Both the position numbers and the translations under genes were made by a program. Positions 22,152-61,221 of a DNA stretch of 64,000 nt are shown one piece after another; positions within the stretch are counted from its first letter, which is position 1; every line of letters begins with the position of its first letter. This stretch comes from Candidatus Obscuribacteraceae bacterium (lineage in GTDB: Bacteria; Cyanobacteriota; Vampirovibrionia; Obscuribacterales; Obscuribacteraceae). The DNA is taken from contig JBGAHS010000001.1 in the NCBI GenBank assembly GCA_044226015.1, positions 640,001-704,000 of the forward strand, read 5' to 3'. Below the pieces are notes generated by a model. It was not told the origin of the DNA. It worked only from the letters and a program-made list of their open reading frames with translations, and did no database searches.

Positions 22152-23336
22152 CTATTGCTTTTTCTTACCGTTTTCGTCGCAGTCGTCACCGTTCTGCGGC
22201 GGTTTATCATTTTTTTCGCGGTCGTTTTTGCCAGCATCGTCATTTCTGTCGCCGCCATCTCTCTTGCCGCGATCGCTACGATAGTTGTCCCAATTATCGC
22301 GTTCGTATCGGTTGCGCTCAGAGTCATACTCAGAATCCTGGCGATGTCTTTCGTCACGATCCAAATCAGGCATGCGCGACAAGCGTGGACCATACTTAAC
22401 ATCCAATTGCCATCCTCCATTGTAGCGGTCGCCATAGCGATCGTACGTTCCCGCTGGAGGCATGATTGAAAGGTACATGCTTGTAGTTGCCAGACGTGGG
22501 TTAAATGGTGGTGGCGTATTTGGTACTATTGGTGGAATCTTCAATACTGTCAGCAGCCACTCGCCTAACTTAGGGTTCTTATACCCAATGTAGCCGGAAG
22601 CCAGTGAGAGACTGGTGTCAAAGGTATAGTTGCCTAGCGTGTTTCTCACGATATGCAAGTTCTTCCATGTATGTTCATCGCTATGCCATGTATCTTTGAC
22701 TGCATCGCTGAATTTTTCCCAGCGGCGATGATCATGCAAAGTATCGAGGACAAATCGGCTTGTGAAATAGGTTCCAATAACTAGCGATGTTGCAGCGCCA
22801 AGTTTGCCAGCTTTGGACATTGCAGCTAGCGTTCCACCGATTACAATCGATGAGGCAATCTGCGGAATATGGTCAGGTAAGTTCGCTATTCCATAGAAGA
22901 AACTCTGTCCTACACCGCCGCCAATTACGAATGCTTCGCGTTTCAGCTTGGTGGAAAAGTTCTCACAGCTTCCTCCTTTTAGAACATCACCCGGATTAGG
23001 CAATGGTGGCGGACCGTCATGGTCGCCTTTTCCTGGTGGAGCCGGAAACGGATTGGGATGTGGTGAATCTTTCGGAGGTCCCGGAAACGGATTAGGGTGT
23101 GGTGAATCCTTCGGTGGCCCCGCTGGAGGAATTTTCCAGGGGCTCGGCCTATCGTAGAAGGAATTGAGCGGCTGCTGTTGTTGTGTGTCGAAAGGGGCTT
23201 TTGAGATACTACTTAAAGCCTGTTCTTTTGCTTTTTCAAACGCTTCCGCGCTGAGACGTGAGTCACCAGAGGCAGTGCCAGTGCCATCTCGCGGGGAGAT
23301 GTCTCTGGAAAAAGCTAGTCGGTCATCACCGCTCAT
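22152..23336 (-). CDS. Hypothetical protein: Pro-rich N-region, Gly-rich hydrophobic core, D/R/N-rich tail
   Basis: Long ORF; ATG at 23336 has a GAGGG RBS and is preferred over 23420. Confidence 0.75.
   Translation of the reverse strand: MSGDDRLAFSRDISPRDGTGTASGDSRLSAEAFEKAKEQALSSISKAPFDTQQQQPLNSFYDRPSPWKIPPAGPPKDSPHPNPFPGPPKDSPHPNPFPAPPGKGDHDGPPPLPNPGDVLKGGSCENFSTKLKREAFVIGGGVGQSFFYGIANLPDHIPQIASSIVIGGTLAAMSKAGKLGAATSLVIGTYFTSRFVLDTLHDHRRWEKFSDAVKDTWHSDEHTWKNLHIVRNTLGNYTFDTSLSLASGYIGYKNPKLGEWLLTVLKIPPIVPNTPPPFNPRLATTSMYLSIMPPAGTYDRYGDRYNGGWQLDVKYGPRLSRMPDLDRDERHRQDSEYDSERNRYERDNWDNYRSDRGKRDGGDRNDDAGKNDREKNDKPPQNGDDCDENGKKKQ
23042..23119 (-). repeat. Two tandem 39-bp units encoding GPPKDSPHPNPFP
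   Basis: Direct repeat visible in both DNA and protein. Confidence 0.85.
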
Positions 23337-23571
23337 GGTTCCCTCTGTTGCCCAAACGCTCTCAAGCCCATTTTGAGACCGCTTGATAACAAGACTACGG
23401 GGATATATATCCACTGTCATCTAATAAAACGTTAGGCTATACGGTCTGCTTGGGGAAAACCCGTAGTAAAAAGCAGCAGTTTTCGCAATTATGTGATGGA
23501 ATTTATTTGCCAGGTTGGCGTTTGCTTTCGCTTCCAGACTTTTAGTTGATGTTCTACAAGTAGAGAAAACG

Positions 23572-23617
23572 AAAATAGGGAAAGCCCTTCACGTCCATTC
23601 GGTTGGGTGGGGCTTTC
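23572..23617 (-). terminator. Probable terminator downstream of the 23671 gene
   Basis: gaaagccc...gggctttc stem with an A-run on the left (T-tract on the minus strand). Confidence 0.5.
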
Positions 23618-23670
23618 AGTGAGTGTAGAGATGCGAGAATACAAAATCGGTTCCCCAGGAGATCAGCTAA

Positions 23671-24258
23671 TCAATTTTGCTTCTCTTTATCTGGCGCCGA
23701 GTCGGGTCTCTTCTCTGCAAGTGATGTGTGGTCATGCATGATTCGCCAGCCATCCTTTGTATTTACGAAGACCAGGCTAAATACGCCATCCAAACTTGTG
23801 GTGGCTAAATCAAGATGCCAACGTCCAATCATCAGTTCGTTCTTCGGACCCAGGTCGTAAGTTTTCAAATCAGAAAACTCAAGCTTGCCCATGGTCTCTT
23901 TGCTTTCGCCGTACTTTTTCTGATAACGGGCTCGTAGGGCTTCATACCCCCAAACGATGTTACCTGCAGACGTGAACGACAATTTTTCTGAGTGCAAATA
24001 TCCACTCATAAAATTGTCCAAGTCGCCCTTATTCCATGCCTCCTTTTGAGAGACGAGCAAGTTCGTAACTGCCTCACCGGCAGCAGACCTGGGTTCTTTC
24101 GTGCTGGTATCGGACGCACTGCTTTTAGTAGATTTTGCGATTTTCAGAGAAGTCGCCTCATCTGCTATTGCGGCAGTTCCGAAGGTCGGTAGAAAAAGCG
24201 CAAGCGCCACCGGGAAGGTTAGCGCTTGCAAGGATATTTGTTTTGTTCTTTGGTTCAC
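23671..24258 (-). CDS. Exported SnoaL/NTF2-like (DUF4440/YybH) protein
   Basis: Signal peptide; AWNKGDLDNFMSGY, GVFSLVF..GWRIMHDHTS. Confidence 0.88.
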   Translation of the reverse strand: MNQRTKQISLQALTFPVALALFLPTFGTAAIADEATSLKIAKSTKSSASDTSTKEPRSAAGEAVTNLLVSQKEAWNKGDLDNFMSGYLHSEKLSFTSAGNIVWGYEALRARYQKKYGESKETMGKLEFSDLKTYDLGPKNELMIGRWHLDLATTSLDGVFSLVFVNTKDGWRIMHDHTSLAEKRPDSAPDKEKQN

Positions 24259-24305
24259 AACCGGTCACTTTCGTATCTTAGTTGCACCATATGCAGTGCA
24301 ACGGG

Positions 24306-25241
24306 TTATTTCGCACTTCCAGCAGTGGCAGCTGCTTGCTGTTGCTGAGCATGAGTTCCGACTCCGACCAGCATTGTCTCGTTGTAGTCTTCCATTTCTG
24401 CTGGCAGGGCTGACGGGACGTTTGTGTGGTAGAGGGTAATATTATGTGGAACGGGGGCTAATCTCTTAGCGTTTGCAACTGTTGGGTTCGGTCTGATGAC
24501 GGCTTTAGCAAGACCCATTTTTTCCAGGATCCAAATGTAGCACCAGGTGACATCGAACTCTTTCCAGGTCATTCCATGGCGTGCTGATTTCGGCATGGCG
24601 TGGTGATTGTTGTGCCAGCCTTCGCCACAAGCGAGAATGCCTACCCACCAAACGTTGCGGCTATCTTCACGCGTGTTGAATGTGCGATAACCGTGGTTCT
24701 CCATATGGCAGAAAGTGTTGACAAACTGTGTTGCCCAGAACACCGTGACTGTGGCGAGTACGTTTGCAACGAGCGCTTGCCAGCCGAAGAAAACGAGTAT
24801 TGGAATACGGAAAATAACGTTGATTGCGAGGCAGAGCAATGCTTGTCCTGCGGTATGACCTCTTCCGAGGTGCTTATAGATCGGGTCTTCATACATATCA
24901 GGAGTGACGCGCTTCACTTCTTCATCACTCTGATATTGCGGCATCTGGAACATCCACTCATAAAGTGCATGTTTGAATCCATCGCGGGGGCTATGTGGAT
25001 CTCCAGGTTGATCTGATTTCAAATGGTGCAATCTATGAACAGCTACCCATACGATGGGTGAACCCATCAAACAGAAGTAACCACCTGATACGATCAGGTA
25101 TTCGAGCCACTTTGGCACTGTCAAAGATTTATGTGTTAGCAGTCTGTGATAGCCAAGCGTTATTCCGCAACCAACATATAGGTAGGTCACGAAAAACGAA
25201 ACGACCGCAGCGGTTAACGGCGATTGAAAAATAGAGTCCAA
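24306..25241 (-). CDS. Delta-9 type fatty acyl desaturase
   Basis: His boxes HRLLTH, HRLHH, HNNHH; TTG start at 25241 with a GGGGGA RBS. Confidence 0.93.
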   Translation of the reverse strand: MDSIFQSPLTAAVVSFFVTYLYVGCGITLGYHRLLTHKSLTVPKWLEYLIVSGGYFCLMGSPIVWVAVHRLHHLKSDQPGDPHSPRDGFKHALYEWMFQMPQYQSDEEVKRVTPDMYEDPIYKHLGRGHTAGQALLCLAINVIFRIPILVFFGWQALVANVLATVTVFWATQFVNTFCHMENHGYRTFNTREDSRNVWWVGILACGEGWHNNHHAMPKSARHGMTWKEFDVTWCYIWILEKMGLAKAVIRPNPTVANAKRLAPVPHNITLYHTNVPSALPAEMEDYNETMLVGVGTHAQQQQAAATAGSAK

Positions 25242-25476
25242 AGTGATTCCCCCGGTGCACAAAAAACTTGAGCCATAGTACCACGTGACAGCCTCACAGC
25301 CTTGACTCGTAGACTGATCAATAAGCTAATCTCGATGCCACTTGATAAGTAGTATCTCATAATAAATCTTGCATTCGCGAAAGTATTACGAAATTGGTGC
25401 TCTTCCGTATGACTCTTTGTTCATGCGCTTCCTCTAGCCGCCTGCATTTAACGCGTTTAAGATACATCTCTTATTC

Positions 25477-26778
25477 TTGTTATCAAGTTTTTTGACGTTT
25501 ATCATTTTGGCGATTACCTTGCTAGGAGTACGCGCATCGCGAACTTCTATTGACTGTCTGGAACTTATTGTGGACTTTCGTTCTTTCCCTCACGCATTTA
25601 AAGGATCAGTTTGCAAACTGTTGGGGCTTCTCCTGCTTTTGCATAATTTGACGATGCCAGTTTTTGCGAAGCAGACGAAAAAGCTGGAAGGACAGAATTA
25701 TCTCTTGTCTCAGTCCGCCGAAAAGCCTGATGATTCAGAGCCAGAGAAGCCAGATGCGAGCTCTGGGAATACTATTAAAGGCAAAAATACGAGCAGCGTC
25801 GACTCTACGAGTTTAGCCGACTCTGCAAATAATAGTATGGGCACGCCGACCGATTTTGCCAACTTTTTCGCAAGTACTGAGCGCCCGAAAGTCGGTTTGG
25901 CTTTGGCTGGAGGCGGCACTCGCGGGTGCGCGCATATTGGCGTTATACGCGTGCTCGAAAAGGAAGGGATTCCCATCGATGCAATTTCCGGCACCAGTAT
26001 TGGTGCCATAGTTGGTGGACTATATGCATCAGGAACAAGTTTGAAAACTATTGAAGACCTTGTCTGTTCCAAGCGACTCATGAGAGCCTATCAGACTGTG
26101 CCGATTCCAGTGAGGCTGGGGTTGGTTCCAGTCTTTTTCGTGCCACACATGTTCGGGTGGCATCCTTACGATGGACTTTACAGAGGCAATTTGTTTGCGA
26201 AGTTCATTTCAAAATCAGCGCCTCCTGGACACAGCGATATAAGTACATTCAAAATTCCATTTAGTGCAGTGGCAGCAAATTTGCTGGATGGCAAAGCCTA
26301 CTCCATAACTAGTGGCGATTTGGGGCGGGCTGTGCAGGCTTCTTCAGCAATTCCACTCTTGCGGCGCCCGGTTGAAATTGGAGACAAGTTGTTTGTTGAT
26401 GGCGGGGTTGTGCAGAATTTGCCTTGCGATAAAGTTCGTGAGCTCGGAGCTGACTTCGTTATCGCTGTAGACATAGATGATGACTTGAAGTTGTTGGAGA
26501 AAAAAGACTTCAGAAAAATTGGCAGCGTATCTCGCCGGGCAGTAAATATGCAGTTGTCTTCGATAGATTCATTCCAACAAGATAAGGCAGACTTTTTAAT
26601 TCATCCTGATGTCACCGGCATTGACCTGCTGGATGGTAACCCAAAAGATGCTCGCCGGGCAATCAAGTCTGGGGAGGAAATCGCTAAGCAGTTAGTGCCT
26701 GAGCTAAAACGCAAATTGCTAGAATATGCCGCTACGTTCTCTAAGACCAGCGCTGCAAGCAAATCTAGTGGCAACTAG
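25477..26778 (+). CDS. Patatin-like phospholipase (start uncertain, probably downstream)
   Basis: GGGTRG, GTSIG nucleophile elbow, DGG motif. Confidence 0.9.
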   Translation: MLSSFLTFIILAITLLGVRASRTSIDCLELIVDFRSFPHAFKGSVCKLLGLLLLLHNLTMPVFAKQTKKLEGQNYLLSQSAEKPDDSEPEKPDASSGNTIKGKNTSSVDSTSLADSANNSMGTPTDFANFFASTERPKVGLALAGGGTRGCAHIGVIRVLEKEGIPIDAISGTSIGAIVGGLYASGTSLKTIEDLVCSKRLMRAYQTVPIPVRLGLVPVFFVPHMFGWHPYDGLYRGNLFAKFISKSAPPGHSDISTFKIPFSAVAANLLDGKAYSITSGDLGRAVQASSAIPLLRRPVEIGDKLFVDGGVVQNLPCDKVRELGADFVIAVDIDDDLKLLEKKDFRKIGSVSRRAVNMQLSSIDSFQQDKADFLIHPDVTGIDLLDGNPKDARRAIKSGEEIAKQLVPELKRKLLEYAATFSKTSAASKSSGN

Positions 26779-26850
26779 CTGCAAGCTATACGAATAACAA
26801 AGACTTCAGGCAGACAGAAATCAGAACACAAGGACAGCGAGTAAGCGCCC

Positions 26851-28869
26851 ATGAGCCAAAACGAAGATGCCAAATCGGAGCAGCCAGCTGCATCAGTTCC
26901 GGAATCCTCAGAGCACCACGTCATGACCCATGAACAGGCGATGGGACCAGACGACCATTTAGACAAGCAAACTGCCTCTGATGTTGCCGAGATCATTTCT
27001 CACGAGCGAAAGGATGAGGAACTGACCCCCGAAGAACTTCATTTGAAGTGGTACAAGGAGACTTACCAGGGCGACAACGTTCCTCAGTTTACGTTTAGAG
27101 CTGTCATCATGGGCGGTATCATTGGCGCATTGATGTCAGTCTCAAATCTCTATACCGCTATAAAAGTTGGTTGGCTCTTCGGAGTCGCCATTACTGCTTG
27201 TGTTCTTTCCTTTGTCATATGGAAAGTCTTTCGCTTTGCAAATCCGAACTTGTCTCAAATGTCCATTCTTGAAAATAACTGCATGCAATCCACAGCCTCT
27301 GCTGCCGGGTATTCAACTGGTTCTACCATTGCCACCGCTTTCGGTGCATACCTTCTGATCACTGGGCATCATGTTGATTGGAAAATTACTGCAGTTTGGA
27401 CTTTGATTACGGCACTGCTTGGTGTGTTGTTGGCTGTGCCTATGAAGAAGCAGATGATCAATCGCGAGCGATTGCCTTTCCCCAGCGGTATTGCCGCTGC
27501 CGAAACCCTCAAGAGTCTTTATGGTGGAGCTAAGGAGTCAATCTATCAGGCTTATTCACTTGTTGCAGCTATGGTTTCAGGCGTGGTTATCGGTGTTCTT
27601 GGGAAAGGTGATTATGCGTGGCAAAAGGTAACTGGTCTTAAGTTGCCAGAACTCATTCCCTTTAACATCACTTACAGTGGCATGGATATGTCCAAGTTCG
27701 CGGGGTTTGGATTCGAGCCCAGCTTGATGTTAATCAGTGCCGGCATGATTGTTGGTCTGCGAAATTCTTTCTCGATGCTTCTTAGCTCATGTATTTTGTA
27801 TTTTTGTCTGGGTCCGTGGCTTGTTAGTCACAACGTCATCGATGCTCCCAGCCATATTGTGTCTCGTTGGGCTCTGTGGACTGGAGCCGCCATCATGGTA
27901 AGTTCTGGTCTGACCTCATTCGCACTTCAATGGAAGACCATATTTCGAGCTGTGGGAAGCATCAAGCAGAGTGGCGGCGCCTCTGGAGTCGACGAGAAGA
28001 CACAAGCTGAGATTGATGCTATTGAAGTGCCAAATAAATGGTTTCTGATTGGATTCATTCCTCTGGGAATCATTTTCTCTATCGTAATGAATCTCGCTTT
28101 TGGCGTAGAAATCTGGAAAGGACTTATCGCTGTCGTCCTCAGCTTCTTCCTAGCTTTAGTTGCGTGCCGAGCAACCGGCGAAACAGACATAACTCCAATC
28201 GGGGCTATGGGAAAAATTTCGCAGCTTACCTTTGCTGTTCTGAGCCCTGGAAACATGACGCAGAATTTGATGGCCGCTAGTGTTACCGCCAACACATCCT
28301 CTGCATCAGCAGACTTGCTTACAGATTTGAAGAGCGGCTACTTGCTTGGTGCCAATGCGCGCAGGCAATTTCTTGCACAGCTTACAGGAGTCTTTTTCGG
28401 CACCGTTGCCATTATTCCTGCCTGGTTTCTGATGATTCCCGATAGGGCAACGCTTGAGGCTTATAATCCGCCTTCTACGCTGATCTACAAAGCTGTTGCT
28501 GAGGCACTTTCCAAAGGTATTGACAGTCTGCACCCTTCGGCGGTTCAGGGAATTATCATTGGAAGCATTCTAGGGCTGGTCATTTCCGTTATTGAGACGA
28601 ACTTTCCCAAGTTGAAAAAATTTGTTCCGTCTTCAATGGGCTTGGGCCTTGCTTGGATTATGCCTTTCCAGAACGCATTCGCGTTTTTCATTGGTGCCGC
28701 TATCGCGTGGATCTGGAAAAAGGCTCATCCAAAAACAGCTGATGTCTTCACGATTCCCATAGCATCGGGAGCCATCGCAGGAGAGTCGCTTGCATGTGCT
28801 TTCATTGCTATCTTCGATGCTCTGCCGAAGGTTCTTCCACAGGTACTGAAGGCAGTTAGCGGGAAATAA
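26851..28869 (+). CDS. OPT-family oligopeptide transporter
   Basis: Multi-TM; LENN.MQS.AS, LPFPSGIA.AE, GETDITP, DLKSGYLLGA. Confidence 0.93.
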   Translation: MSQNEDAKSEQPAASVPESSEHHVMTHEQAMGPDDHLDKQTASDVAEIISHERKDEELTPEELHLKWYKETYQGDNVPQFTFRAVIMGGIIGALMSVSNLYTAIKVGWLFGVAITACVLSFVIWKVFRFANPNLSQMSILENNCMQSTASAAGYSTGSTIATAFGAYLLITGHHVDWKITAVWTLITALLGVLLAVPMKKQMINRERLPFPSGIAAAETLKSLYGGAKESIYQAYSLVAAMVSGVVIGVLGKGDYAWQKVTGLKLPELIPFNITYSGMDMSKFAGFGFEPSLMLISAGMIVGLRNSFSMLLSSCILYFCLGPWLVSHNVIDAPSHIVSRWALWTGAAIMVSSGLTSFALQWKTIFRAVGSIKQSGGASGVDEKTQAEIDAIEVPNKWFLIGFIPLGIIFSIVMNLAFGVEIWKGLIAVVLSFFLALVACRATGETDITPIGAMGKISQLTFAVLSPGNMTQNLMAASVTANTSSASADLLTDLKSGYLLGANARRQFLAQLTGVFFGTVAIIPAWFLMIPDRATLEAYNPPSTLIYKAVAEALSKGIDSLHPSAVQGIIIGSILGLVISVIETNFPKLKKFVPSSMGLGLAWIMPFQNAFAFFIGAAIAWIWKKAHPKTADVFTIPIASGAIAGESLACAFIAIFDALPKVLPQVLKAVSGK

Positions 28870-28966
28870 CCGCTAGATTGGAGTTTCTCGCGGTTTGAGC
28901 TCGCGAAGACTTTGTTGCTATATAATCAATATCTATTGCTTCCGAAGTGCTCGTAAGGCGTAATCG

Positions 28967-30277: not shown

Positions 30278-30281
30278 TGGT

Positions 30282-33200
30282 TTAGTTTTCCGATTTAGCG
30301 TTTTCAGTCAGAAAGTCCTTCAGCTTTCTCATCGCCATTTCGAATGACTTCTCCTCAATTCCGAAACATGCCCTTGCCCAATCATCGCTTCTTGACCATT
30401 TATCTGGGTTCATGAGAATCGCTTTTCTGGTGGCTAGCGTGTCTGTTTTTCCGCCGAGCTTTGCAAGCAAAAACATGCCACCGCGTCGTGCATATTTGAG
30501 TCCGTCGGCAAGCTCATGTTTTTGAAGCAAGTCTAGTAGACTCTTGCGATGATCACTCAAAATCGCTCTTGCCCCGTCTAAATATTCTTGCACCTCGGCG
30601 AATTCGCTTTTACCATCTATGAGTTGGTGGGGAGATTCAGGCAGGAATGCCGAGTAGAGCCTGTCCCAGGCACGCAGGACGACCTGCGGAACCTTGGTGC
30701 CGTGATTTCTGAGATAGTTTGCCCAGATTTCGTCAGGGCAGAGCATGAACCCGCAGCGAATTCCTCCTGCGGCGAAAGCCTTTGCCAGACCATCTGCCAC
30801 GAAAAGATACTTGCGTTCTTCTGCGCTTGCATTGTAAGCGAAGCTCAGTTCGGCTGGGGTCCATCGTCCTAATGAGGCGTCACTGAGTAGAAAGAAGATC
30901 TCATCGGCGAATAAATATATTTGACGTTCGGCACAAACTTTGAGGATCTTCTTTATGTTTTCCGGCTCTAGAAAAATTCCAGACGGATTGGCTGGTTGGC
31001 TGATGTAAATCAGGTCTGGCTTTCTATTCAGTAAAGCTATGTCCTCTGCCAGAGGGAAGAATCCATTTGCTAGTTTTGTGTCAAAGGTAATTACTTCAGC
31101 TGCGTGATATTGCAACATTGGAAAAATGGGACCATAGCTGCCTTTTGGCACAGCCACTAGAGCTGGTCTGCCCAGCTTTTTGTTTAGTGCCTGAATGAGT
31201 GAGCTGCTCAGAGGGAAGACACCTTGCCCTAAGACTATGTTGGCTGGGTTGACCTTTGCATGTCTGGTTTTTTGAACATAAGCAGCCACTCGTTCTTGTA
31301 GTGTTTCCGTTAGAGAATCTGAACGCCCTTCAAGGAAGCCCTTTAGCAGACCCTTTATTAGCAGGTTAGGAACCGGATATTCGAATTCGCCATAATCAAG
31401 GCGCACCAACTCAGCGGTTTCAAGAGGAATGGGTTTGTCTTCGAAAACAGGGTCTGCAGAGATTTGTTCGAATTCATCCGAAAGTTCAATTCCCGTTTTT
31501 GCCACATTGTTTCTTGTTCGCTGGCCCGATTCCACAAAGGGAAATGAGAGCAACTCGTCGAAAAGCCATTCATAGTAAAGTTGCACTATGAACGAAATGC
31601 GTGAATAACTCAGCTCAGCGCAGTATTCCAGCCCGTGAATCCAATCATCGGGAGCATTAATCAAAAAGCTCAATTCGAAATCGGGGCAAACCGTATTCTT
31701 GATTAAGCCGTAGAGGAAGATCAGGTTGCTAGGCACTTTCCTCTGTCCGAGTAATCTCAGGAGCAAATTACTTTGAATTTGTGAACCAATTTCGAAATGC
31801 TCTGAGTCATCGATTATGTAGCATCTATCGGGGTTTGCCTCAGCCTGTTGAATTAAGGTATCGAGAATAAGTGGAGAGGGGTCCTTCAACTGATATGGTG
31901 CAATGACGCAAATGCGTGCAGCAAAAACAGCGTCCATACTCAGCAGTTCGCTCAAGTCGTTGTTGCCCAGAATTGGCTCAAGACCTTGCTGTCGACACAA
32001 TTCTCCGTAGAGTGGATCAAGCGATGATGACAGTAGCACTCCGTCGCCAGGTTTCGCCACCATTTTTAGTATCATCGATAGGAGTTGTGGTCTATCGGGT
32101 CCAACAAAAAGGTGCTCAGGGTTTGCGTTGTAGTGACAGTAAAAAGATAGGAACTGTGCCAGCTTCTCTCGAAAATGCGCATCGCCCTTCTCATGGGGAT
32201 AGGGTATGGTGCGACGTTGCAGTAGTTCGTTGGAAAGCCGTTCAAGAAAACCAATTTGTTCTTCGCTTAGACGAGAAAGGTCGAGCTCTCTGCGAAGACC
32301 ATCAAGAGAGAGCTGGTGGAGGTTTCTTAGAAAACCTAATGTAGGTTTCTCAAACTGTGTCTCAGCCTGGTAAACGAGTAAATCATGGAAAATACTCTCG
32401 CCTCGTTTCTTCAACTGAACAGCGGTTGATGCTGGAATCGATTGCCGAGACTCTTGCGAAATGAAGAAATGAAATTTGATACCGTAGGCTTCCTCAAGAT
32501 TCACAAGTTGCACCAGGTCGGTGTCATCTGCTTGCTGAATTCTTCTAACCCAGGTCAGCGAAGGAGAGTAACCGCGTCTTTTGAACATTTCTTCTATGGC
32601 TTGTTGCCCGGGTCTTCCACCAAGAATTAGCGTCAGCGAGCCCTGCAGGTTCAAGCAAAGTTGTGCTTCCTCAAGTGCTCGAGCGATGAGTGGCAATCCA
32701 AATCTGTCTTCTAAAATACCCTGGTTAAAGCAGTAATTGCTCAAATCATATAGGTCTTGATACGACAAGTCTTGCAATGATTCAGCATTTTTTTCGGGAA
32801 CCGGGTGAAGGACTTGAGGAATGCAGCCTATGATGCGGTCAAACTTCTCATCTCGCGATAGTGGCGTTTGCAAAAGATCAGATTGTTCTGCGCGAAATGC
32901 TTTGACTATAGGAACCCCAGATAGCGCCATTCTAAGGGAACCATCTTCATTACTGCCATTCAGCCATTTGTTTATATTTGCCAGCGTCACTGCAACGGGG
33001 TTGATATCCAAGCCCAGCACTTCCACCACAGGGCTGCGTTGCAGCAAGAGCAGGCTTATCCAGCCGGATCCGGTGCCAAGTTCAACGATCTTTTTTCCAC
33101 GAAAGTGCTCAGTGTTTTTCAAGAGCCCTTCAGCGAAAGTACGCCCCCAGAACTCGGGAGAAAACACCGCCGGGTTCAGGATGAGTCGAATAGGCTCGGC

Positions 33201-33413
33201 GACACCGGGCACCTTTAAATTCTTGAAGGTCAAATGACCCGAATTCTCTCCCAGCTTGTCTAATTTTGCAGCTAGTTTATGAAGCACGCCACATGCATCA
33301 GCTGAAGTTTGTTCGTTCTCCAGCATGTTCAGTAGTTTTTCCAGAAACGCAAGTATTTCGGCTGGGCTGCTGCTGACTATCTCGTCAACTGACGGCAACA
33401 GTTTTGGTGACAT
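30282..33413 (-). CDS. Plant-type methionine S-methyltransferase (SAM MTase fused to PLP-aminotransferase-like domains)
   Basis: FSPEFW.RTF.EGL, ELGTGSGWIS, GLDINP, DRIIGCIPQVL, LSNYC..QG..ED.FGL.LIARA, GGRPGQ, QA.DTD; C-terminal DEIF and GLAK...RCG. ATG at 33413 preferred. Confidence 0.85.
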   Translation of the reverse strand: MSPKLLPSVDEIVSSSPAEILAFLEKLLNMLENEQTSADACGVLHKLAAKLDKLGENSGHLTFKNLKVPGVAEPIRLILNPAVFSPEFWGRTFAEGLLKNTEHFRGKKIVELGTGSGWISLLLLQRSPVVEVLGLDINPVAVTLANINKWLNGSNEDGSLRMALSGVPIVKAFRAEQSDLLQTPLSRDEKFDRIIGCIPQVLHPVPEKNAESLQDLSYQDLYDLSNYCFNQGILEDRFGLPLIARALEEAQLCLNLQGSLTLILGGRPGQQAIEEMFKRRGYSPSLTWVRRIQQADDTDLVQLVNLEEAYGIKFHFFISQESRQSIPASTAVQLKKRGESIFHDLLVYQAETQFEKPTLGFLRNLHQLSLDGLRRELDLSRLSEEQIGFLERLSNELLQRRTIPYPHEKGDAHFREKLAQFLSFYCHYNANPEHLFVGPDRPQLLSMILKMVAKPGDGVLLSSSLDPLYGELCRQQGLEPILGNNDLSELLSMDAVFAARICVIAPYQLKDPSPLILDTLIQQAEANPDRCYIIDDSEHFEIGSQIQSNLLLRLLGQRKVPSNLIFLYGLIKNTVCPDFELSFLINAPDDWIHGLEYCAELSYSRISFIVQLYYEWLFDELLSFPFVESGQRTRNNVAKTGIELSDEFEQISADPVFEDKPIPLETAELVRLDYGEFEYPVPNLLIKGLLKGFLEGRSDSLTETLQERVAAYVQKTRHAKVNPANIVLGQGVFPLSSSLIQALNKKLGRPALVAVPKGSYGPIFPMLQYHAAEVITFDTKLANGFFPLAEDIALLNRKPDLIYISQPANPSGIFLEPENIKKILKVCAERQIYLFADEIFFLLSDASLGRWTPAELSFAYNASAEERKYLFVADGLAKAFAAGGIRCGFMLCPDEIWANYLRNHGTKVPQVVLRAWDRLYSAFLPESPHQLIDGKSEFAEVQEYLDGARAILSDHRKSLLDLLQKHELADGLKYARRGGMFLLAKLGGKTDTLATRKAILMNPDKWSRSDDWARACFGIEEKSFEMAMRKLKDFLTENAKSEN

Positions 33414-33576
33414 GGAAGCTCTCAAAATGTAGTAATAAACGAGCAAATACTACAAGATTTCCCGGACGGGCGTGTGATTTCCGGTTCACCCTGTTTTATT
33501 GCTTGGAACAAAAGTGACTGGACATCGATCATTCTCGTTTATTTCTGTGGAATAAACGCAGCTCTCTTGGATAGAT

Positions 33577-48508: not shown

Positions 48509-48510
48509 TG

Positions 48511-49874: not shown

Positions 49875-50474
49875 ATGTCTAAAGAGAAAGATGCATCAAA
49901 AGAAATTGCCGAGCCAAAGGCTGTGTCGGAGAGTTCAGCTCTTCACAACGAAGCATTTTCTGAGATGAAAATGAATGCAGTGCAAAACAAAGCATCTACC
50001 AACTCGTCCGAGCGAGCACAATTTCTCGACTGCCCACCAGTGCCTGGCTATGGACATACTCAAGATGACATCTTTCAGCATAATACACGGACTCCAAATG
50101 GACTAAATCATAACCCCATGGAGATGACCATTAACTCCGGACATAGCGTTGATAATGAAATGACAGTTTTTGCAAATCCATCGCTGCGAGAAAATTGGCT
50201 TGCTCATGATGAGCTTCGTGCAATTCCGCACCCTCAAGAATCGCGACATCATAGTCATCGGCATGCTATCGCACCGGCAGAAGGCGGGGGGCGGCCACTA
50301 CCGCAAGATCAGGTTGTTATTCCAAATGTATTATCACCTGGAAGTTTGAGACTACCTGATTTGCCCAGGTTAAACCCAATTGCATCAGCACCGCTAGACA
50401 TAGACCACGAGCGCAACGCCGAACGAGCCCGGCAAGCTGCGCAGAGCGCTCCTTTCCGTCATGTTCGCCATTAG
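49875..50474 (+). CDS. Low-complexity hypothetical protein
   Basis: 199-aa ORF, GAGGG RBS, predicted disordered; LHNEAF motif. Confidence 0.7.
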   Translation: MSKEKDASKEIAEPKAVSESSALHNEAFSEMKMNAVQNKASTNSSERAQFLDCPPVPGYGHTQDDIFQHNTRTPNGLNHNPMEMTINSGHSVDNEMTVFANPSLRENWLAHDELRAIPHPQESRHHSHRHAIAPAEGGGRPLPQDQVVIPNVLSPGSLRLPDLPRLNPIASAPLDIDHERNAERARQAAQSAPFRHVRH

Positions 50475-50484
50475 GTGTGGAACT

Positions 50485-52668: not shown

Positions 52669-52913
52669 CTCAAACCTTCAATGTATAAGGAAACGAAAAT
52701 AGCGCCTGAAGGACGCCAGAGCATGATCTTAGCAGATATATGCCAGGAGTAAAGCAAAGTATTAACGCAGAAGTTACCACTTCGGCGGCTTGGACGCTTT
52801 ACCAGTGTCGATAGTAAGGATAGTAAACCTTCCCCTGATCGCTGGCATCTCCCACTGGGCATGGATACAAATCAGGACTCAAGGTAGGCTCCTGCCAGCG
52901 CTCCGGCGATGGA

Positions 52914-53480: not shown

Positions 53481-53503
53481 CGAATTTTCTTTCTAGTTGC
53501 AGT

Positions 53504-54676: not shown

Positions 54677-54764
54677 AACGCTTGCTTCTTGACTTGATTG
54701 AGCATAGCAGAATTATGTCTTTGCATAAAAGGAAAGACAAGCCAAAATCTCATTTGTAAAGCGC

Positions 54765-55679
54765 TTACTTGCCTTCGGTTGAAGGACCCTTCATCTTTTC
54801 GTTGAGCGCTTCCTTGAGCAGCTCGTTCTGCTTCAACAAAGCCTTTAAGTGCTCATTGGCAATGGCTAATTCCGCCTGCAACTCAGCTACGGTTTGCTCA
54901 TAGGTCACGCCAGTTACAGGGTCTCTTCCTGGCATCTTAGGCAGGAGGACGTAGCCAAGTTGAACGGCCTTCAAAGCTGCAGCCGTTCTTGTTGGAACTT
55001 TCAATTTAGCAAGAATACACTCGATATGCTTTTCAACTGTTCTCAGTTTCATATCTAATTCTTCGGCGATCTCTTTATTACGCAAGTCAAGACGAATCAA
55101 GACCTCGATTTCTCGATCGGTCAGATTCGTGTTGGGCATCGCGTTGGCTGGCGTTTGCTTCACCAATTGAGTGATTTTGGGGTCACAATAAGGCAAGCCC
55201 CTCGTTACCTGATCAATCGCGTCAAAAAGAGTTCTGGGACCAGAACTCTTCAAGCAGAATCCGCGTACACCAGCCCTTATCAGCTGATTGTGGTACTTGG
55301 TCGCGTGATATGAGTCGGTCAGAATTAGTAAATTAGTTTGTGGCATTTCAGTCGTAATGCGACGAGCCACTTCGACCCCATTCAGGATATCTAAATCGAC
55401 ATCCAGTATTACGAATTGTGGGTTGAGTCGTCTGATAATTTCGGTCGCAGCCATACCGTCGGAAGCTTCACCGATAATTTCAAGAACTTCGGAGACAACT
55501 CTTTTCAACCCGAAACGGATGAGCTCATGACGCTCGCAGACTACTGTCTTGGGGCGGAAACTTGAACCACGAGAAGGTAAACCGGATTCCAACGAAAACT
55601 CCAATTTTTTGTACTCTACAAGTAGAACTTCTGAAATGATCTCAGCTTGACAAAGTTTTGTCCGCGCTAATTCTATCAA
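54765..55679 (-). CDS. NarL/FixJ-family response regulator (REC + LuxR HTH) with terminal extensions; start uncertain
   Basis: ILDVDL..LNG, LILT, CLK; LTDREIEVL...NKEIAEEL..RTVEKH...KL. Confidence 0.9.
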   Translation of the reverse strand: MIELARTKLCQAEIISEVLLVEYKKLEFSLESGLPSRGSSFRPKTVVCERHELIRFGLKRVVSEVLEIIGEASDGMAATEIIRRLNPQFVILDVDLDILNGVEVARRITTEMPQTNLLILTDSYHATKYHNQLIRAGVRGFCLKSSGPRTLFDAIDQVTRGLPYCDPKITQLVKQTPANAMPNTNLTDREIEVLIRLDLRNKEIAEELDMKLRTVEKHIECILAKLKVPTRTAAALKAVQLGYVLLPKMPGRDPVTGVTYEQTVAELQAELAIANEHLKALLKQNELLKEALNEKMKGPSTEGK

Positions 55680-56039
55680 TTCTTGAAGCGCAGTGTAACG
55701 GTTCTGAAAGTCCGCATGAGAGCAAACTTACGCAATTGCGTTCTGTTCGTCAAGAGTTGAGCTGTTTCTTGCTGTCTAAAATCGCGTTGTCAGGTGATCT
55801 TGCCCTATGTTTTCAAGTGTAATTGTAAGCTTGGGTCATCCTTATCCATCATAAGTTTTGAGAGTTCTCACCATGATTTCAAGGTGTTGCCTGTCATGAC
55901 TTGCCGGGGTACTATGGGTGGTGCTTACTAACTTGTAGCGATTTGTCTAAACAATGATTTCGCTAGCAAGCGGTGTACTAAAAGACGCCATCACCTTTAC
56001 TAACTTTCTCGGCCTTAGTGCCGCTGGAGACGGAGTACG

Positions 56040-57485
56040 ATGAAGACCACGTTGCTGCAAAAGGCTCAAAGGGCGAGTTCGCTTATGTTCGCTCTCTCTC
56101 TGCTAATGCAACCAGCCTTAGCACAGTCAACCCCTTCACTCGCTCCGAGAGCGACTAACATTCCGACCGTCAGCCCATCGGTGGCTCCGCAGAGTACCAT
56201 TCTGCCGACTGACACTCTGCCACTACCGGCAGTGCAGAACCGCATGACCTTCGCAGAGAATTTGCAGCTTCGCATTTTGCAAAAATTACCAGCCCGATTT
56301 TATTTCAATGCCACTTGCGAAACTTCGGTTCGTGATGAAACGAACCCATTTCAGTTTCCTAAAAAAGCATCTCTGATGCGTCAGCTTCCTCCTCCCACTA
56401 TCTGGCGATTACTCAGCTACACACAGCAGCAGCAGCTGTATGATACTGTCGGATTGGTAGCAAGAAATGACGCTGTGTTCCGTGTACTACCTAACATCAC
56501 GGCGGGGTGGACTCTGACCCCACGCACGCGTTTGTATGGTAACTACTTCATGATTCGCGACCAATTGGCTCACGAAATCAGAATCAACACAGTAATTCAC
56601 TCAATAGGTGTTGGTATTCAGCAAGACATTCCCGTGACATCACGAGGAAATTTGCAAGCTGAATTTCAGTTCCGTGAACTTTATTCATTGCACCAACAGT
56701 CAGTTTTCGACTTCTTGCCTGGTCTGACCTTGTCTTATGTGCTGACACCACGCATAGTGCTATTCACTAATGCCCTCATGCAGATGCGCGGTAAGGCCTT
56801 TTTCCAGGCTCCAACAAAAGAGTTAGACCCCTTCTTCACATGGGGCGGACTCTATCAGAAAAATGGTTGGACTTTCTCTGCGTCCACTACCTTTGTGCAG
56901 AACTTCCGGGAGCCTTTCGTTCATAATTCAACAATTCCAGTAAACAACTATTCCTTCATTTCTGACTTTGAAATTGCCAGACGCGTAATTAAGCAGTTGC
57001 CTGGTTTGCAAGCCTTCGTCAGAGCTGAGCCAATTTGGAACTTCCACGGAAAGAACAAGCCAGGCTTGTCCGGTATGGACTTTCGTGTTTTCTTTGGCAT
57101 GAGAATGTCTATGGCTAAGCCTGCCTTGACAGGGGCTCTTGAGCAGCTCAAGCAGCAGCTTGAAGAACAAGAACTCGAGCAACCAGATCCAGGTCAAAAG
57201 AAACCAGGCAGCGAAACTAAGCCATCTGCTCTTATACCGGCTCATGAGCTCATTGCATCAAGCCCTCAACCAATGCATGGTTTCTTGAATGCTCAGGGCA
57301 AGGAAGATGCCGAAGGCCCAATGCAGGAGTTTGCAAATCAGAGTGAGGACCCTCTAGCTGGTCCAGCCACCAATCAATTTGCAGATCAAATTGGTCAAAG
57401 CGCACCAGTTGATCCAGCCAATGAAACTGCAGCACTGATACCAGATCAGACTTCTGTTGGAGCAATGCCAGTTAGCCTGCACTAA
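56040..57485 (+). CDS. Exported hypothetical protein, possible outer-membrane beta-barrel
   Basis: Signal peptide ending ALA-Q; many amphipathic aromatic-ended strands; acidic disordered tail. Confidence 0.7.
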   Translation: MKTTLLQKAQRASSLMFALSLLMQPALAQSTPSLAPRATNIPTVSPSVAPQSTILPTDTLPLPAVQNRMTFAENLQLRILQKLPARFYFNATCETSVRDETNPFQFPKKASLMRQLPPPTIWRLLSYTQQQQLYDTVGLVARNDAVFRVLPNITAGWTLTPRTRLYGNYFMIRDQLAHEIRINTVIHSIGVGIQQDIPVTSRGNLQAEFQFRELYSLHQQSVFDFLPGLTLSYVLTPRIVLFTNALMQMRGKAFFQAPTKELDPFFTWGGLYQKNGWTFSASTTFVQNFREPFVHNSTIPVNNYSFISDFEIARRVIKQLPGLQAFVRAEPIWNFHGKNKPGLSGMDFRVFFGMRMSMAKPALTGALEQLKQQLEEQELEQPDPGQKKPGSETKPSALIPAHELIASSPQPMHGFLNAQGKEDAEGPMQEFANQSEDPLAGPATNQFADQIGQSAPVDPANETAALIPDQTSVGAMPVSLH

Positions 57486-57528
57486 ACAAGTACAAGTTAA
57501 ACTCAGTTTTGTCTTTTATTTGGAGCAA

Positions 57529-60500
57529 CTAAACTGGGCGCAGCTTGTTTGAGATTGGTCTCTTAACAAGTCTTCCGATTTTGCTTGAAAGGTCTTTGAC
57601 CACTCCAGTGATTCCGGCCTTTATAGGCATGTCCTGGTGGTTTGCGCGTGTCGGAACGCCAGCTGCAACAGGCATGTCTTGATGGTTGTTGCGAGCAGGA
57701 ATTCCTACTGCCAGCGGAATATCTTGCTGATTTGCTCTCAACGGAGCACCGGCTGCGATAGGCATATCTTGTTGATTTGCGCGTACTCTTGCCGCTGCAG
57801 AACTTGGGATGTCCTGCTGATTGTTGCGTATGCGTGATGCGTTTGCAACTGGCATGTCTTGATGATTTCCGAAAAGACCGCCGATGATGAGTTCTGGAAG
57901 TCTCATCTTTTCAGGCTTATGAGCTTTCGCAGGCTTTTGTGTGGATGAATTTGTGCTCGACTGTTCGGCTTCTGTGCCACCGCTGACGGTGCCCAAATAG
58001 CTGTCGAGTAATTCGCGATCAATGGTTGTTTCACTCACAACTGTCACGAGATTGTCTATGTTGAAATCTCTTTGGAGAGTGTTGAGGAAAGTGGTGATTT
58101 CTTCAGCTTCTGGAAGCTCGAGAACCTGTCTGCTCTTAAGTTCAACGATTCTCTTGCCGTCAATATTCTCTTCACGAATGTTGGCGCCGTTCAGGTCTGC
58201 AATCAGCCAGGCTATTGCCTGGTTTTGATAAAGCGATTCTGCAATTGATTGCAGTGTTTCGCCTTCGCTGACCATGTGTGTGCGGCGATGAAGAATTTTG
58301 TGAGCATCGAGATTTGGAGCAACGGTTCCGATTTGTTCGCCGGTTTCCGGGTCAACAAGCATGAGTTCATTTCTTACTTTTGCTGCGCCGCCCATGGCTA
58401 TAACTGCCGCTATGGTGAGTTCGACACCCGTTAAATATCTCTTGTTTTTGTCAGCGCCGAATTCTCTGATGCGGCGAATGGGGAGTCCGTTTTCATCGAC
58501 GCCATCTTCATATTCAAGTTGAGCTAACTCAGCATTGCTGATACCAACAACTCCTTGTGTGTCTACCTTGTTTGTCAGAACTTGACCATGGATGTCGACC
58601 GGGCGTCCCTTTGCGTCAACCAGAACCCCATCGACCTTTTCGATATTCATTTTGCCAGCAGGCAATTCATTGCTTTTGTGATTAGCCAGCAAGGTGTCAG
58701 CTAGATGCTTGCCACCATTTACGGTGTCAAGGTTGAACTGCGTTTTGCCATTGACCAACTCAGAGGAAACTATGCCTTTTTCTGTGAGCGTTGCCATGCT
58801 GGCATCTTTTCTGGCGATAATGGTGCCATCTTCTGCTCTAACAATAACTTTGCCAGCTTCAATATTGAGCTGTCCGTTTAGATTGCCACGCTCTTGTAGT
58901 CCCGCTGCTGTGACTGCTGCCGTTTTTTCTCCAACTAGCAAAACGCGATCTGAAAGTCCTGCTACTGATGTTGAGGTGACTGCCAGTTTGTCAGCCATGA
59001 TTGATGTGGCTAGCGGCTTTTCCGAGAGTGAAAAGGCGGTTCTTTCCGTGTTGCTTATGCCTAGCATGGCAGCAATATTCTTTTCCACAGCGATCAAGTT
59101 AACCTTGTCTGTAGCAGCCAAGGTGTTAAGTGCAATTGCTTTGCCAGTTGTGGGGTCAATTTCGCTTCCCGTTGAAATTCTGGCAAACGATGGCAATGTG
59201 AGTTCTCTGCCTGCGCCGATGACGTTTTGCACTGATTTGTCAGCGCTTGCAACGTTTTGCAATGGAATACTCAGATCTACTGGTCTGGCTCGGTGGTCAT
59301 CTGTGTCAAGCGCCACTTTTCCTGCCTCGCTGCGAACAAGCTGCGACGGCTCAACGGAAGCAACCCGCGCAGGTTCCTGCGCTGATTGTGCTTTGCCTAA
59401 ATCTATGGTGTTAAACGATGTTCGTTCGACGTTGTTGGAAGCTGCAATTGTTCTGTCACTCTGTCGCACGTCTGCGAAATCTCGCACGTCACGGCTTGAA
59501 CCAGCCAGTGTGCTTGATTCTCTTTCTCGCCCAGCACTTTGTTCTCTGGAAAAATCGCGGCTAGAGGAAGCTTGCTCGGTTCTTGAAGCCGAATTCAGCG
59601 CTGCGTTATTCTCGGTTCTAGCTGCCAGGTCTACTCTGCCACCGGCAGTGGTGTCGCGGAAGCCGAGATCTCTTGTTGCCACATCTTTGCCTGGGTCGGC
59701 AGTTTTGAACTGCGGCAACTCCACCTTAGCTGCTTGGTCAGAGCCAACTTGCGGCCTGAAATCGGCAACCGCTGGTCTTCCGTCAGGTGCTTTCGTGCTG
59801 AAATCAGCGAGGTGCGGACCTTCCGAATTCTTTGAGTCAGAGCTCTTGAAATCTGCTCTAATCTCAGGTGCTTTCAGTTCTGATGATTTGAAATCGACTC
59901 TGGCAGGTTCGTTTGATTTAGCCGCAAAGTCAACTCGTCCTGTCGGAAGTGAGCCATTTTGCTTGGCTTCATCAATTGAACACGCGCCCGGTTTTCCATT
60001 GTAGCCATTCAGTTGATCGAGAAGTCCGGTCGATTTCTCTGTCTGGTTGTTAGAGCGCATGTCTGCAGCTGCAACATTTTTTTGTACTTCGCTTGTTCTC
60101 AATCCCAAGTCAGTACGAATGGCTGGGTCGAGTTTCGATGAGTCAATTTTGAAAGATGGTTCCACCCGCAATCCGTCAAAACGATCTTGCAGTTTCTGCC
60201 CGTCTTCTGGTTTTACTTCTGTATTGCGCGAGCCGATCTGAAAGCCATTTTGTCTGGCTTCTTCAACGGTGCACGGTCCTACTTTTGAATTGCCACTTTG
60301 AAGTTGTTCAATGAGTGACGGTCCATTTGAACCGGTCGAACGTTCTACTTTGGATGACTCGTCTTTTGGAACGTTCAACGCATCGCTTTTAGATGCTCTG
60401 TTGATTTGATCGTTGGTTGAAACTTGAACTGCTGCATCAATCTTGAAACCATTTTGTTTGGCTTCTTCTATGGTGCAAGGACCAACTTTGTTGTTTCCCT

Positions 60501-61221
60501 GGCTCAGTTGCTCGATCAATGATGGTGTTTCTGATTTGCGTACTTGCTGCTCAGCTGCGGCAGTTTGACTAGCTGTTTTCATGCTTTCGATGTTGAAACC
60601 ATTTTGTTTGGCTTCTTCCACGGTGCAAGCGCCGCGTTTTACTTCGCAATTGTTCAACTGGTCGAGCAGTGAAGGAGAGGTGTTGGTTTGTGTTTGCGTC
60701 ACCTGCACATCGCTTCTGCCGGCTGCGATCAAGCTGCGCTCGTCGACAGGAGCCTTGGCTGGCGTTTCTGCTTTCGCCATCGCCATTGCTCCTGCTGAAG
60801 CTGTCGCTGTTACTTCTATTGTTCCAGATTTACCTGGAACTTCTGTATTTTTGTTTGAGTCAGTCTTAACCGCGTTGAACAGCGCTTGTTGTCCTTCTGA
60901 AGGACGTGTACCCAATCTATCAGCGAAGGTCGGAATCGTGGTGGTCACTTCGCCACTGTTGGAAAGCCTGTGCTCATCGGAATTGTGAATGAATGCTGAG
61001 CTGACACCATTTTCAGTGCCTGGACGCTTGAGTCCTGCATTCTTTAATTCGCTAGTGATTAGATCGTCTTTTGTCCCGCCAGTCAGCCGATTGAGAACAG
61101 AGGACGCGAACGCTTCAGCGGTCATTCTCAAACTGGCTTCTGTGCCGACAGCCTTATCTGTGCTCTGAGGTCTTTCGCCCTCAGTAGCTTCAGTTTTTGC
61201 TTTGTGTTTGCTGTCGTCCAT
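57529..61221 (-). CDS. 1230-aa repeat-rich protein with a LysM-like domain
   Basis: THMVSEGETLQSIAESLY...IADLN; one hydrophobic segment; two internal repeat families. Confidence 0.85.
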   Translation of the reverse strand: MDDSKHKAKTEATEGERPQSTDKAVGTEASLRMTAEAFASSVLNRLTGGTKDDLITSELKNAGLKRPGTENGVSSAFIHNSDEHRLSNSGEVTTTIPTFADRLGTRPSEGQQALFNAVKTDSNKNTEVPGKSGTIEVTATASAGAMAMAKAETPAKAPVDERSLIAAGRSDVQVTQTQTNTSPSLLDQLNNCEVKRGACTVEEAKQNGFNIESMKTASQTAAAEQQVRKSETPSLIEQLSQGNNKVGPCTIEEAKQNGFKIDAAVQVSTNDQINRASKSDALNVPKDESSKVERSTGSNGPSLIEQLQSGNSKVGPCTVEEARQNGFQIGSRNTEVKPEDGQKLQDRFDGLRVEPSFKIDSSKLDPAIRTDLGLRTSEVQKNVAAADMRSNNQTEKSTGLLDQLNGYNGKPGACSIDEAKQNGSLPTGRVDFAAKSNEPARVDFKSSELKAPEIRADFKSSDSKNSEGPHLADFSTKAPDGRPAVADFRPQVGSDQAAKVELPQFKTADPGKDVATRDLGFRDTTAGGRVDLAARTENNAALNSASRTEQASSSRDFSREQSAGRERESSTLAGSSRDVRDFADVRQSDRTIAASNNVERTSFNTIDLGKAQSAQEPARVASVEPSQLVRSEAGKVALDTDDHRARPVDLSIPLQNVASADKSVQNVIGAGRELTLPSFARISTGSEIDPTTGKAIALNTLAATDKVNLIAVEKNIAAMLGISNTERTAFSLSEKPLATSIMADKLAVTSTSVAGLSDRVLLVGEKTAAVTAAGLQERGNLNGQLNIEAGKVIVRAEDGTIIARKDASMATLTEKGIVSSELVNGKTQFNLDTVNGGKHLADTLLANHKSNELPAGKMNIEKVDGVLVDAKGRPVDIHGQVLTNKVDTQGVVGISNAELAQLEYEDGVDENGLPIRRIREFGADKNKRYLTGVELTIAAVIAMGGAAKVRNELMLVDPETGEQIGTVAPNLDAHKILHRRTHMVSEGETLQSIAESLYQNQAIAWLIADLNGANIREENIDGKRIVELKSRQVLELPEAEEITTFLNTLQRDFNIDNLVTVVSETTIDRELLDSYLGTVSGGTEAEQSSTNSSTQKPAKAHKPEKMRLPELIIGGLFGNHQDMPVANASRIRNNQQDIPSSAAARVRANQQDMPIAAGAPLRANQQDIPLAVGIPARNNHQDMPVAAGVPTRANHQDMPIKAGITGVVKDLSSKIGRLVKRPISNKLRPV
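57620..57872 (-). repeat. Six ~45-bp units encoding N[HQ]QD[MI]P 15-mers
   Basis: NHQDMP, NQQDIP, NQQDMP, NQQDIP, NHQDMP, NHQDMP at 15-aa spacing. Confidence 0.85.
59950..60677 (-). repeat. Four dispersed ~29-aa repeats L[LI][DE]QL..G[AP]C[TS].[ED]EA[KR]QNG
   Basis: Visible in the translation of 57529..61221. Confidence 0.85.

Follow-up and report, generated by a model that had tools for sequence, protein, structure and literature searches.

Three proteins encoded in a 64,000-nucleotide stretch of a Candidatus Obscuribacteraceae bacterium genome (order Obscuribacterales, class Vampirovibrionia; assembly GCA_044226015.1, contig JBGAHS010000001.1, positions 640,001 to 704,000, forward strand; hereafter the window) share a short motif near their N-termini, which a first-pass annotation had singled out as a candidate signal for secretion or targeting. 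This motif is one instance of an N-terminal tag carried by approximately 100 unrelated proteins lacking signal peptides. Tag and basic C-terminal tail quite possibly form an export label, for which the order's chromosomal type IV secretion system (T4SS) is the most likely reader. An export or targeting function of the tag, taken by itself, is probable. As far as sequence comparison reaches, a lineage-specific tag of this kind is supported by the positional enrichment of the motif, the lack of signal peptides in its carriers, cargo expected to act outside the cytoplasm or in a target cell, and the addition of a leader to M4 peptidases in this lineage only, whereas the type III, flagellar and contractile injection systems that the annotation offered by analogy as readers are not upheld.

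The motif in the window and across the genome

The tagged proteins of the window and their elements are as follows.

22152..23336, minus strand: tagged protein 1, 394 aa; the leader with the tag is followed by Pro-rich repeats, a shared helical module to which a second tag is fused, and a charged low-complexity tail with C-terminus KKKQ
23238..23267, minus strand: N-terminal tag GDSRLSAEAF of protein 1, residues 24-33 (EAF at 31-33, from the ATG at 23336)
22929..22955, minus strand: second, internal tag STKLKREAF of protein 1, residues 128-136, opening the helical module
22539..22967, minus strand: Gly/Ala-rich all-helical module of protein 1, approximately 140 aa
49875..50474, plus strand: tagged protein 2, 199 aa, orphan, C-terminus RHVRH
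49929..49958, plus strand: N-terminal tag ESSALHNEAF of protein 2, residues 19-28 (EAF at 26-28)
57529..61221, minus strand: tagged protein 3, 1230 aa; low-complexity repeats over a long region, conserved C-terminal domain, C-terminus KLRPV
61108..61137, minus strand: N-terminal tag ASLRMTAEAF of protein 3, residues 29-38 (EAF at 36-38), the lowest-scoring of the three
57994..58305, minus strand: conserved domain of protein 3, approximately 100 aa

All three tags are in frame at the residues first reported for them; the span of GDSRLSAEAF had been begun correctly at 23238 and closed at 23264, one codon short of 23267. Translation starts upstream of the motif also hold: GAGGG directly precedes the ATG in both shorter genes (proteins 1 and 2), the leaders of all three proteins score as coding, and the leader of protein 3 is kept in its homologues. 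The gene for protein 3 is without a ribosome-binding site and has a second Met at residue 33; in six same-genus homologues, from five genomes, the leader is likewise polar and about as long, and a motif variant can be read by eye at residues 35-38, one of the six reaching a score of 12. Held-out scores under a profile seeded outside the window were 15.2, 12.5 and 9.5 for proteins 1, 2 and 3, with internal-window tail fractions of 0.0004, 0.0014 and 0.007. The corresponding shuffle P values under a core-only profile from other contigs were 0.0025, 0.0005 and 0.024, this profile placing the best site of protein 3 at residue 41 and not 36.

The genome to which the window belongs (8.19 Mb, 92% complete; its contigs are numbered with a C in coordinates below) was analyzed with gene calls from a self-built hexamer model, 5,918 genes in all, some starts being wrong and counts approximate. 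In the exact form first proposed, [LM]x[AN]EAF, the motif has four matches at residues 21-40 among these genes, three of which fall in the window, so the EAF spelling is a local coincidence; that definition was overfitted and was rejected as too narrow. The broader motif, which follows a polar leader, reads [AS]-[SA]-x-x-[LF]-x-x-[ED]-A-hydrophobic. An unrestricted search for enriched gapped patterns in all N-termini returned only signal-peptide and kinase patterns, and a profile seeded solely on the three window proteins drifted to 25 mixed matches. Among the 593 polar-leader proteins, L-x-x-E-A was the top L/F-containing gapped pattern (34 versus 12.8 expected).

A profile was built from 24 seed proteins encoded elsewhere in the genome than in the window and iterated with leave-one-out scoring. 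Scanned over 5,583 proteins, it gave 108 N-terminal matches at a threshold of at least 12 compared with 10.8 in scaled internal controls, which places the motif in its broader form far above chance. A split-half test with a core-only profile trained on other contigs, at a threshold of 10, found 88 real N-termini versus 18.4 shuffled, 27.4 column-permuted, 17 C-terminal and 16.7 mid-protein sequences, its training sites having been taken from the iteration across all contigs, so that the test is not fully independent. The motif Glu lies at residues 25-34 in 69 of 116 matches, the bodies of which fall into 97 clusters. Across 91 carriers the columns show A or S at -7 (47 and 22%), L or F at -3 (86 and 11%), E or D at 0 (63 and 24%), A at +1 (58%) and mostly hydrophobic residues at +2. 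A further 57 paralogues of tagged bodies score below the threshold or have their site beyond the accepted positions. Signal peptides are absent from all 57, the leader is polar in 37, and in many a degenerate variant can be read by eye; because of these paralogues the true tagged set is probably 100-200 proteins. Approximately 10% of the carrier matches are false positives (LysRS, heme oxygenase), and among 115 widely conserved genes used as a housekeeping control, of low power with approximately two expected, the four scoring at least 12 were all tagged M4s.

That the motif is a functionless compositional by-product of acidic, S/A-rich N-terminal extensions is hardly credible. Its degeneracy, the false positives and the rarity of the exact pattern would fit such an origin, yet the motif exceeds composition-preserving shuffles and column-permuted profiles 3- to 5-fold, which largely refutes this reading. 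It also peaks sharply in position, and homologues whose leaders have otherwise diverged retain it. The helical periodicity of the tag is ambiguous (moment 3.44 at 100 degrees and 3.19 at 180); a helical reading is suggested by the low Pro content of the core (1.2%, versus 3.8% and 6.3% in the flanks) and by the AlphaFold model of a module-fused copy. Carriers neighbor each other in 20 cases (random mean 7.9, random maximum 22), a clustering that is suggestive only, and no shared upstream DNA motif of carriers survives the number tested (best P approximately 1e-6 over 81,920 patterns).

No Pfam family was found in proteins 1, 2 or 3, and protein 2 has no homologue in its own genome nor in seven other genomes of the genus. 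The conserved domain of protein 3 is matched in 67 of 81 order genomes, with six copies in its own genome. The region of protein 3 at window positions 57529-60700 (minus strand) contains four copies of an S-L-[LI]-[DE]-Q-L...C-[TS]-x-[DE]-E-A-x-Q-N-G repeat, and the protein has approximately six C-terminal N-[HQ]-Q-D-[MI]-P repeats. Convergent with it, a gene at 56040-57485 (plus strand) encodes a signal-peptide-bearing protein without a Pfam family, which has three to eight matches in each of five same-genus genomes and lies near protein 3 homologues in at least four relatives. A patatin gene at 25477-26778 (plus strand) scores 12.8 at residue 57 of its shorter start, likely a false positive with a longer hydrophobic N-terminus probable, and at 30282-33446 (minus strand) a 1,043-aa fusion joins a methyltransferase-like region to a class I/II aminotransferase.

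Leaders, tails and cargo of the tagged proteins

The absence of signal peptides described for the window proteins extends to the whole set: none of the 91 carriers has a signal-peptide-like hydrophobic stretch, compared with 20% of other proteins. D, E, N, H, K and S abound in the carrier leaders, which have a median net charge of -2. At the opposite end, the last five residues bear a mean net charge of 0.98 in carriers (n=91), 0.79 in sub-threshold paralogues (n=57) and 1.30 in proteins with the helical module (n=23), compared with 0.29-0.34 in three controls (signal-peptide, polar-leader-untagged and cytoplasmic-like proteins; P approximately 1e-5 to 1e-6). This basic tail is a statistical bias and no per-protein rule, reaching +2 or more in 30% of carriers; the carrier C-termini inspected are unrelated to one another. 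An LPxLxL sequence lies downstream of the tag in 15 of 83 carriers, and among other proteins it occurs in 201 of 4,914.

The first-pass annotation had described the bodies behind the motif as unrelated and effector-like. Their division into 97 clusters shows them to be mostly unrelated; the LysM that it named is, in the conserved domain of protein 3, a weak, low-score lead (LysM/tail-X-like, ESM 0.80, with LysM on 42% of that cluster). A Pfam survey of the top 80 of 94 selected carriers left 51 without a family, placed 22 in hydrolase or effector-type families and two in generic repeats, and exposed five apparent false positives. Among the 22 are proteases and peptidoglycan-related families (four M4, three S53, C11, S9, PepSY, GH73, GH25, phage lysozyme, DPBB and LysM); the remainder are RHS, three ChaN/HopBA1-like, macro, EEP and endonuclease NS, the GH73 match and one ChaN match falling below the curated cut-off. 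Peptidoglycan, the substrate of the GH25, GH73, phage-lysozyme, DPBB and LysM proteins, is located outside the cytoplasm. The 22 also comprise two families of nuclease type, and the RHS carrier is a 5,065-aa RHS/FHA protein.

With so many hydrolases among the carriers that would need restraint in the producing cell, and with no enrichment of immunity-like neighbors, the helix might be an inhibitory, pro-peptide or self-association element rather than a sorting signal. We give this slim prospects, given that the same short motif precedes unrelated folds in 97 clusters and that the M4 and S53 carriers retain their own prodomains behind it.

Of particular use is the comparison with protealysin-type M4s of other phyla, which start at the PP prodomain motif, in most cases no later than residue 20; where starts were mis-called, as in a few rows of this comparison, the position was judged by eye. 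One Obscuribacterales clade has added a leader of approximately 50 aa with motif variants. Of 38 M4s, the 21 that bear a leader have a mean net charge of +1.67 in the last five residues and frequently end in KKA[SG], versus -0.29 for the 17 leaderless, and the single leaderless M4 nested in the leader clade is also without a basic tail. Protealysin-type M4 copies number 13 in this genome, 5-13 in five of six same-genus genomes and 0-3 elsewhere. The 13 M4 and 11 S53 paralogues, several in tandem (e.g. C11:336233-343116), represent a strong genus-level expansion of protealysin-type and sedolisin-type proteases, and a crude search picked up no emfourin-sized open reading frame (ORF) directly downstream of the 13 M4s. 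The available part of one account describes protealysin as intracellular and not secreted, with delivery by vesicles or a type VI secretion system (T6SS) proposed (PMC9505478). Together with the lack of an identified channel partner for the tag, this would suit a tag that sorts its carriers to a structure or store (vesicles, a membrane adaptor or a chaperone-held pool), to be freed by vesiculation or lysis with no dedicated channel. Such a role appears improbable, as the fixed N-terminal distance and paired basic C-termini would be typical of threading signals and the cargo reaches 5,065 aa.

The helical module of protein 1 occurs in 23 proteins of the genome and, outside protein 1, sits near the N-terminus before varied enzymes. 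Several of these proteins bear their sole tag at the start of the module, the position of the second tag in protein 1. Module-fused cargo includes S53, M4, trypsin-like, NADAR, DJ-1, PHP, M13, HD and S9 domains, the last three added by Pfam on 89 of the best 150 module relatives. Met is the first residue in 146 of those 150, and 36 of the 146 reach at least 10 for the tag, a scoring in which the first profile columns overlap the fused tag. The module has 707 representatives at 50% identity and is found in 51 of 58 order genomes and in none of 143 others of the class. It has no Pfam match; its AlphaFold model has six helices (pLDDT 90.7), and fold searches against the PDB gave none at E<=0.001 (best Z 5.8), which is not proof of a new fold. 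A resemblance to PT-TG is an ESM lead only (0.84). The module would help some cargo to cross or anchor in the membrane.

Dozens of giant proteins of 2,000-14,000 aa (e.g. C12:174215, 14,391 aa; C12:468004; C10:380530) are also encoded in the genome, with a common N-terminal RPG...NLDL...LTPAE pattern by eye and, in many, signal-peptide-like starts; from their sequences they appear to be a separate large exported family without the tag.

Type IV secretion genes and other candidate readers

Both VirB4 and a VirD4 coupling protein are encoded in the genome. The chromosomal set consists of DUF2225, VirB3-like, VirB4, VirB8-fold and type IV coupling protein (T4CP) genes together with a second VirB3-like-VirB4 module, each syntenic in eight relatives.

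C10:63035-71720 (L002:5036-13721): VirB3-like/VirB4 module with T4CP and Replic_Relax gene; core in Obscuribacterales
C1:182285-186376 (L001:10286-14377): second VirB3-like/VirB4 module, VirB4 in two pieces in this genome; core in Obscuribacterales
C1:195010-201171, C6:530291-535876, C7:801266-812863, C10:82065-86231, C1:171194, C4:238902: VirB6-like genes

A VirB4 orthologue is present in 76 of 81 order genomes at E=0 and at least 71% identity. The T4CP was found with this query in 25 of 26 order genomes and in none of 95 others of the class, and the TraG/VirB4 profile in 26 of 26 order genomes versus 10 of 95 outside. The model of a small operon gene matches IcmL/DotI, TraM, CagV and VirB8. 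Nine large genes with many membrane segments, in two families with long variable C-terminal regions, are read as VirB6-like by position and hydropathy, as are the putative VirB3-like genes; the C-terminal region of one resembles the tagged protein at C1:378592-379521. In most relatives DUF2225 genes precede both VirB4 modules, and their products could serve as adaptors.

Basic C-terminal and bipartite T4SS signals are known, as set out in the available part of PMC10025392, and by analogy with them the basic tails, which resemble VirB/D4 signals, make the T4SS the best candidate reader of the tag, a role to which we give an even chance. The tag and tail would accordingly resemble a bipartite secretion signal on a polymorphic effector set, the proteins being only putatively T4SS effectors. 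In the proposed mechanism, the acidic, likely disordered leader would keep the tag exposed; the Pro-poor core [AS]xxxLxx[ED]A-hydrophobic would form a short helix that docks on an adaptor or chaperone, with the downstream LPxLxL strand aiding docking in approximately a fifth of carriers; and VirD4, the coupling protein, would then receive the substrate, with the basic tail serving in the manner of a VirB/D4 translocation signal. Cargo such as lysozyme-type enzymes, proteases and nucleases would act outside the cell or in neighboring bacteria, which points to antagonism or predation.

Several observations weigh against this assignment. T4SS effector signals are usually C-terminal (PMC10025392, available part). 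The VirB8-fold model also matches unrelated NTF2-like proteins such as ARC6. No TrbL/VirB6 Pfam match was found in the genome, and for the outer-membrane core there are only five TrbI-like matches, all sub-threshold and unlinked, in a search that did not extend to VirB9 and VirB7. The relaxase-like Replic_Relax gene, located near the T4CP, is core as well (77 of 81 order genomes), so DNA may be all that the T4SS transfers. Carriers do not cluster near T4SS genes (2 versus 4.2 expected), nor do they show enrichment of small, immunity-like genes linked downstream (6 of 91 carriers versus a 12% background). In two other T4SS-bearing genera, 400 kb held one gene of 314 at 12 or above, apparently spurious, versus approximately 5.4 expected (P approximately 0.03), and 14 homologues of protein 3 from other genera have polar leaders that all score below 10. 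Four genomes of genus g2 have the T4CP and lack the module, and co-distribution is weak evidence in any case because related genomes are not independent. Likewise, the M4 tree requires just one or two evolutionary changes for the pairing of leader and tail, which is consequently not many independent events.

A few motif-like leaders are visible by eye in the two other genera although the trained profile is near-empty there, suggesting that the tag is divergent or much rarer outside its own genus. An outgroup scan found none of 309 genes at 12 or above, and does not discriminate because the two in-order genera also gave about none. A structure prediction that paired the tag with the cytoplasmic domain of the T4CP (0.49, 0 and 0) has no bearing either way.

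Other export machines were sought in the same genome. For the type III, flagellar or contractile injection reader first suggested, no FlhA/SctV was found in it or in 80 of 81 order genomes, and no FliI/SctN-like paralogue, TssC, or tail or phage sheath in this 92%-complete genome. A type VII system is not indicated, with no WXG100 protein and two FtsK-profile matches that fall in a VirB4 gene and an unrelated ORF. A double-glycine (PCAT) leader is not apparent, GG occurring in 1 of 91 carriers; for a C39-ABC exporter, three C39 matches (one small and two giant proteins) are without a Walker A match, the giant ones lying at C11:93221-100069 and C2:19681-28332. A single SecA and no SecA2 were found.

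The genome also has a type IVa pilus locus, two Tad loci and two secretins; a PilM-PilN-thioredoxin fusion lies in the pilus locus (C13:24553-26643; L010:2554-4644). It is rather unlikely that the tag is an export label read by one of these machines (an expanded Tad, the type IVa pilus or an unrecognized system), the T4SS serving for DNA only. Besides the loci themselves, the core relaxase-like gene near the T4CP would fit this, as would the Tad marker RcpC, found in 26 of 26 order genomes and often in 2-4 copies, a distribution that counts further against the T4SS. However, Tad is not confined to the order: 33 of the 95 class genomes beyond it have Tad as well, although the module was not found there, and basic tails suit VirB/D4 better. 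Pilus and type II secretion routes load cargo from the periplasm following Sec or Tat, yet the carriers lack such signals.

Comparison with known systems and significance

The tag, the helical module and this order-wide T4SS were not found described in the literature, most subscription papers and all supplements lying outside the scope of that search. The T4SS assignment draws on Agrobacterium VirB/D4-type systems, with which this set shares a VirD4 coupling protein, VirB4 and a VirB8-fold subunit, and on the bipartite signals of Bartonella and Helicobacter, which, according to the available part of PMC10025392, likewise combine basic C-termini on unrelated cargo with a second recognition element. 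In those systems the second element is the BID domain (Bartonella) or the CagA N-terminal region (Helicobacter), whereas here it is a motif of approximately 10 residues in an acidic leader, with no folded domain. The tail bias here is also mild, VirB9, VirB10 and VirB11 were not identified (VirB9 and VirB7 not having been searched), the targets are likely bacteria, and secretion is a prediction.

Effectors of the Xanthomonadales X-T4SS are similar in pairing a chromosomal T4SS with antibacterial-type enzymes that bear one common recognition element; from what is available of PMC8740702, that element, XVIPCD, comprises the C-terminal approximately 120 aa with a Gln-rich tail and binds the VirD4 all-alpha domain, while the tag here is short and N-terminal. 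The Obscuribacterales set also differs in showing no enrichment of small downstream genes of an immunity-like kind and in its core relaxase-like gene. Type III and flagellar N-terminal signals with chaperone-binding domains share an N-terminal, non-cleaved, likely disordered leader on unrelated cargo; here, however, an acidic leader holds a defined helical motif at residues 25-35, and, as described above, FlhA/SctV was not found in 80 of 81 order genomes nor a FliI/SctN paralogue in this one. With T6SS markers (MIX, FIX) and pre-toxin domains (PT-TG) the helical module has in common that it lies N-terminal to interchangeable enzyme domains, in the manner of polymorphic-toxin markers, but neither TssC nor a sheath was found here and the module is without a Pfam match.

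Among lineage-wide systems, the chromosomal T4SS of Patescibacteria is comparable, although mostly without a relaxase where Obscuribacterales retain one (PMC12102498, available part). Hydrolase delivery and predation have been proposed for a same-class relative, Vampirovibrio, through a plasmid-borne T-type T4SS (PMC4451040, available part), whereas the T4CP described here was not found with this query in other orders of the class. No substrate tag is described in the available parts of these two accounts (PMC12102498, PMC4451040).

Known T4SS signals being mostly C-terminal, a short N-terminal signal on putative T4SS substrates is a directly testable case, and a usable tag yields a candidate effector list from approximately 2% of an orphan-rich proteome. 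Obscuribacterales are a large-genome, non-photosynthetic sister group of cyanobacteria whose lifestyle is poorly known, and the tag set suggests interbacterial attack. As a tentative and somewhat doubtful extension, Obscuribacterales may be unrecognized contact-dependent predators, in which a domesticated T4SS with two VirB4 and many VirB6-like proteins would inject 100-200 polymorphic enzymes by way of an N-terminal helix tag and basic tail, a new helical translocation module would serve a subset of them, and the same machine would move chromosomal DNA.

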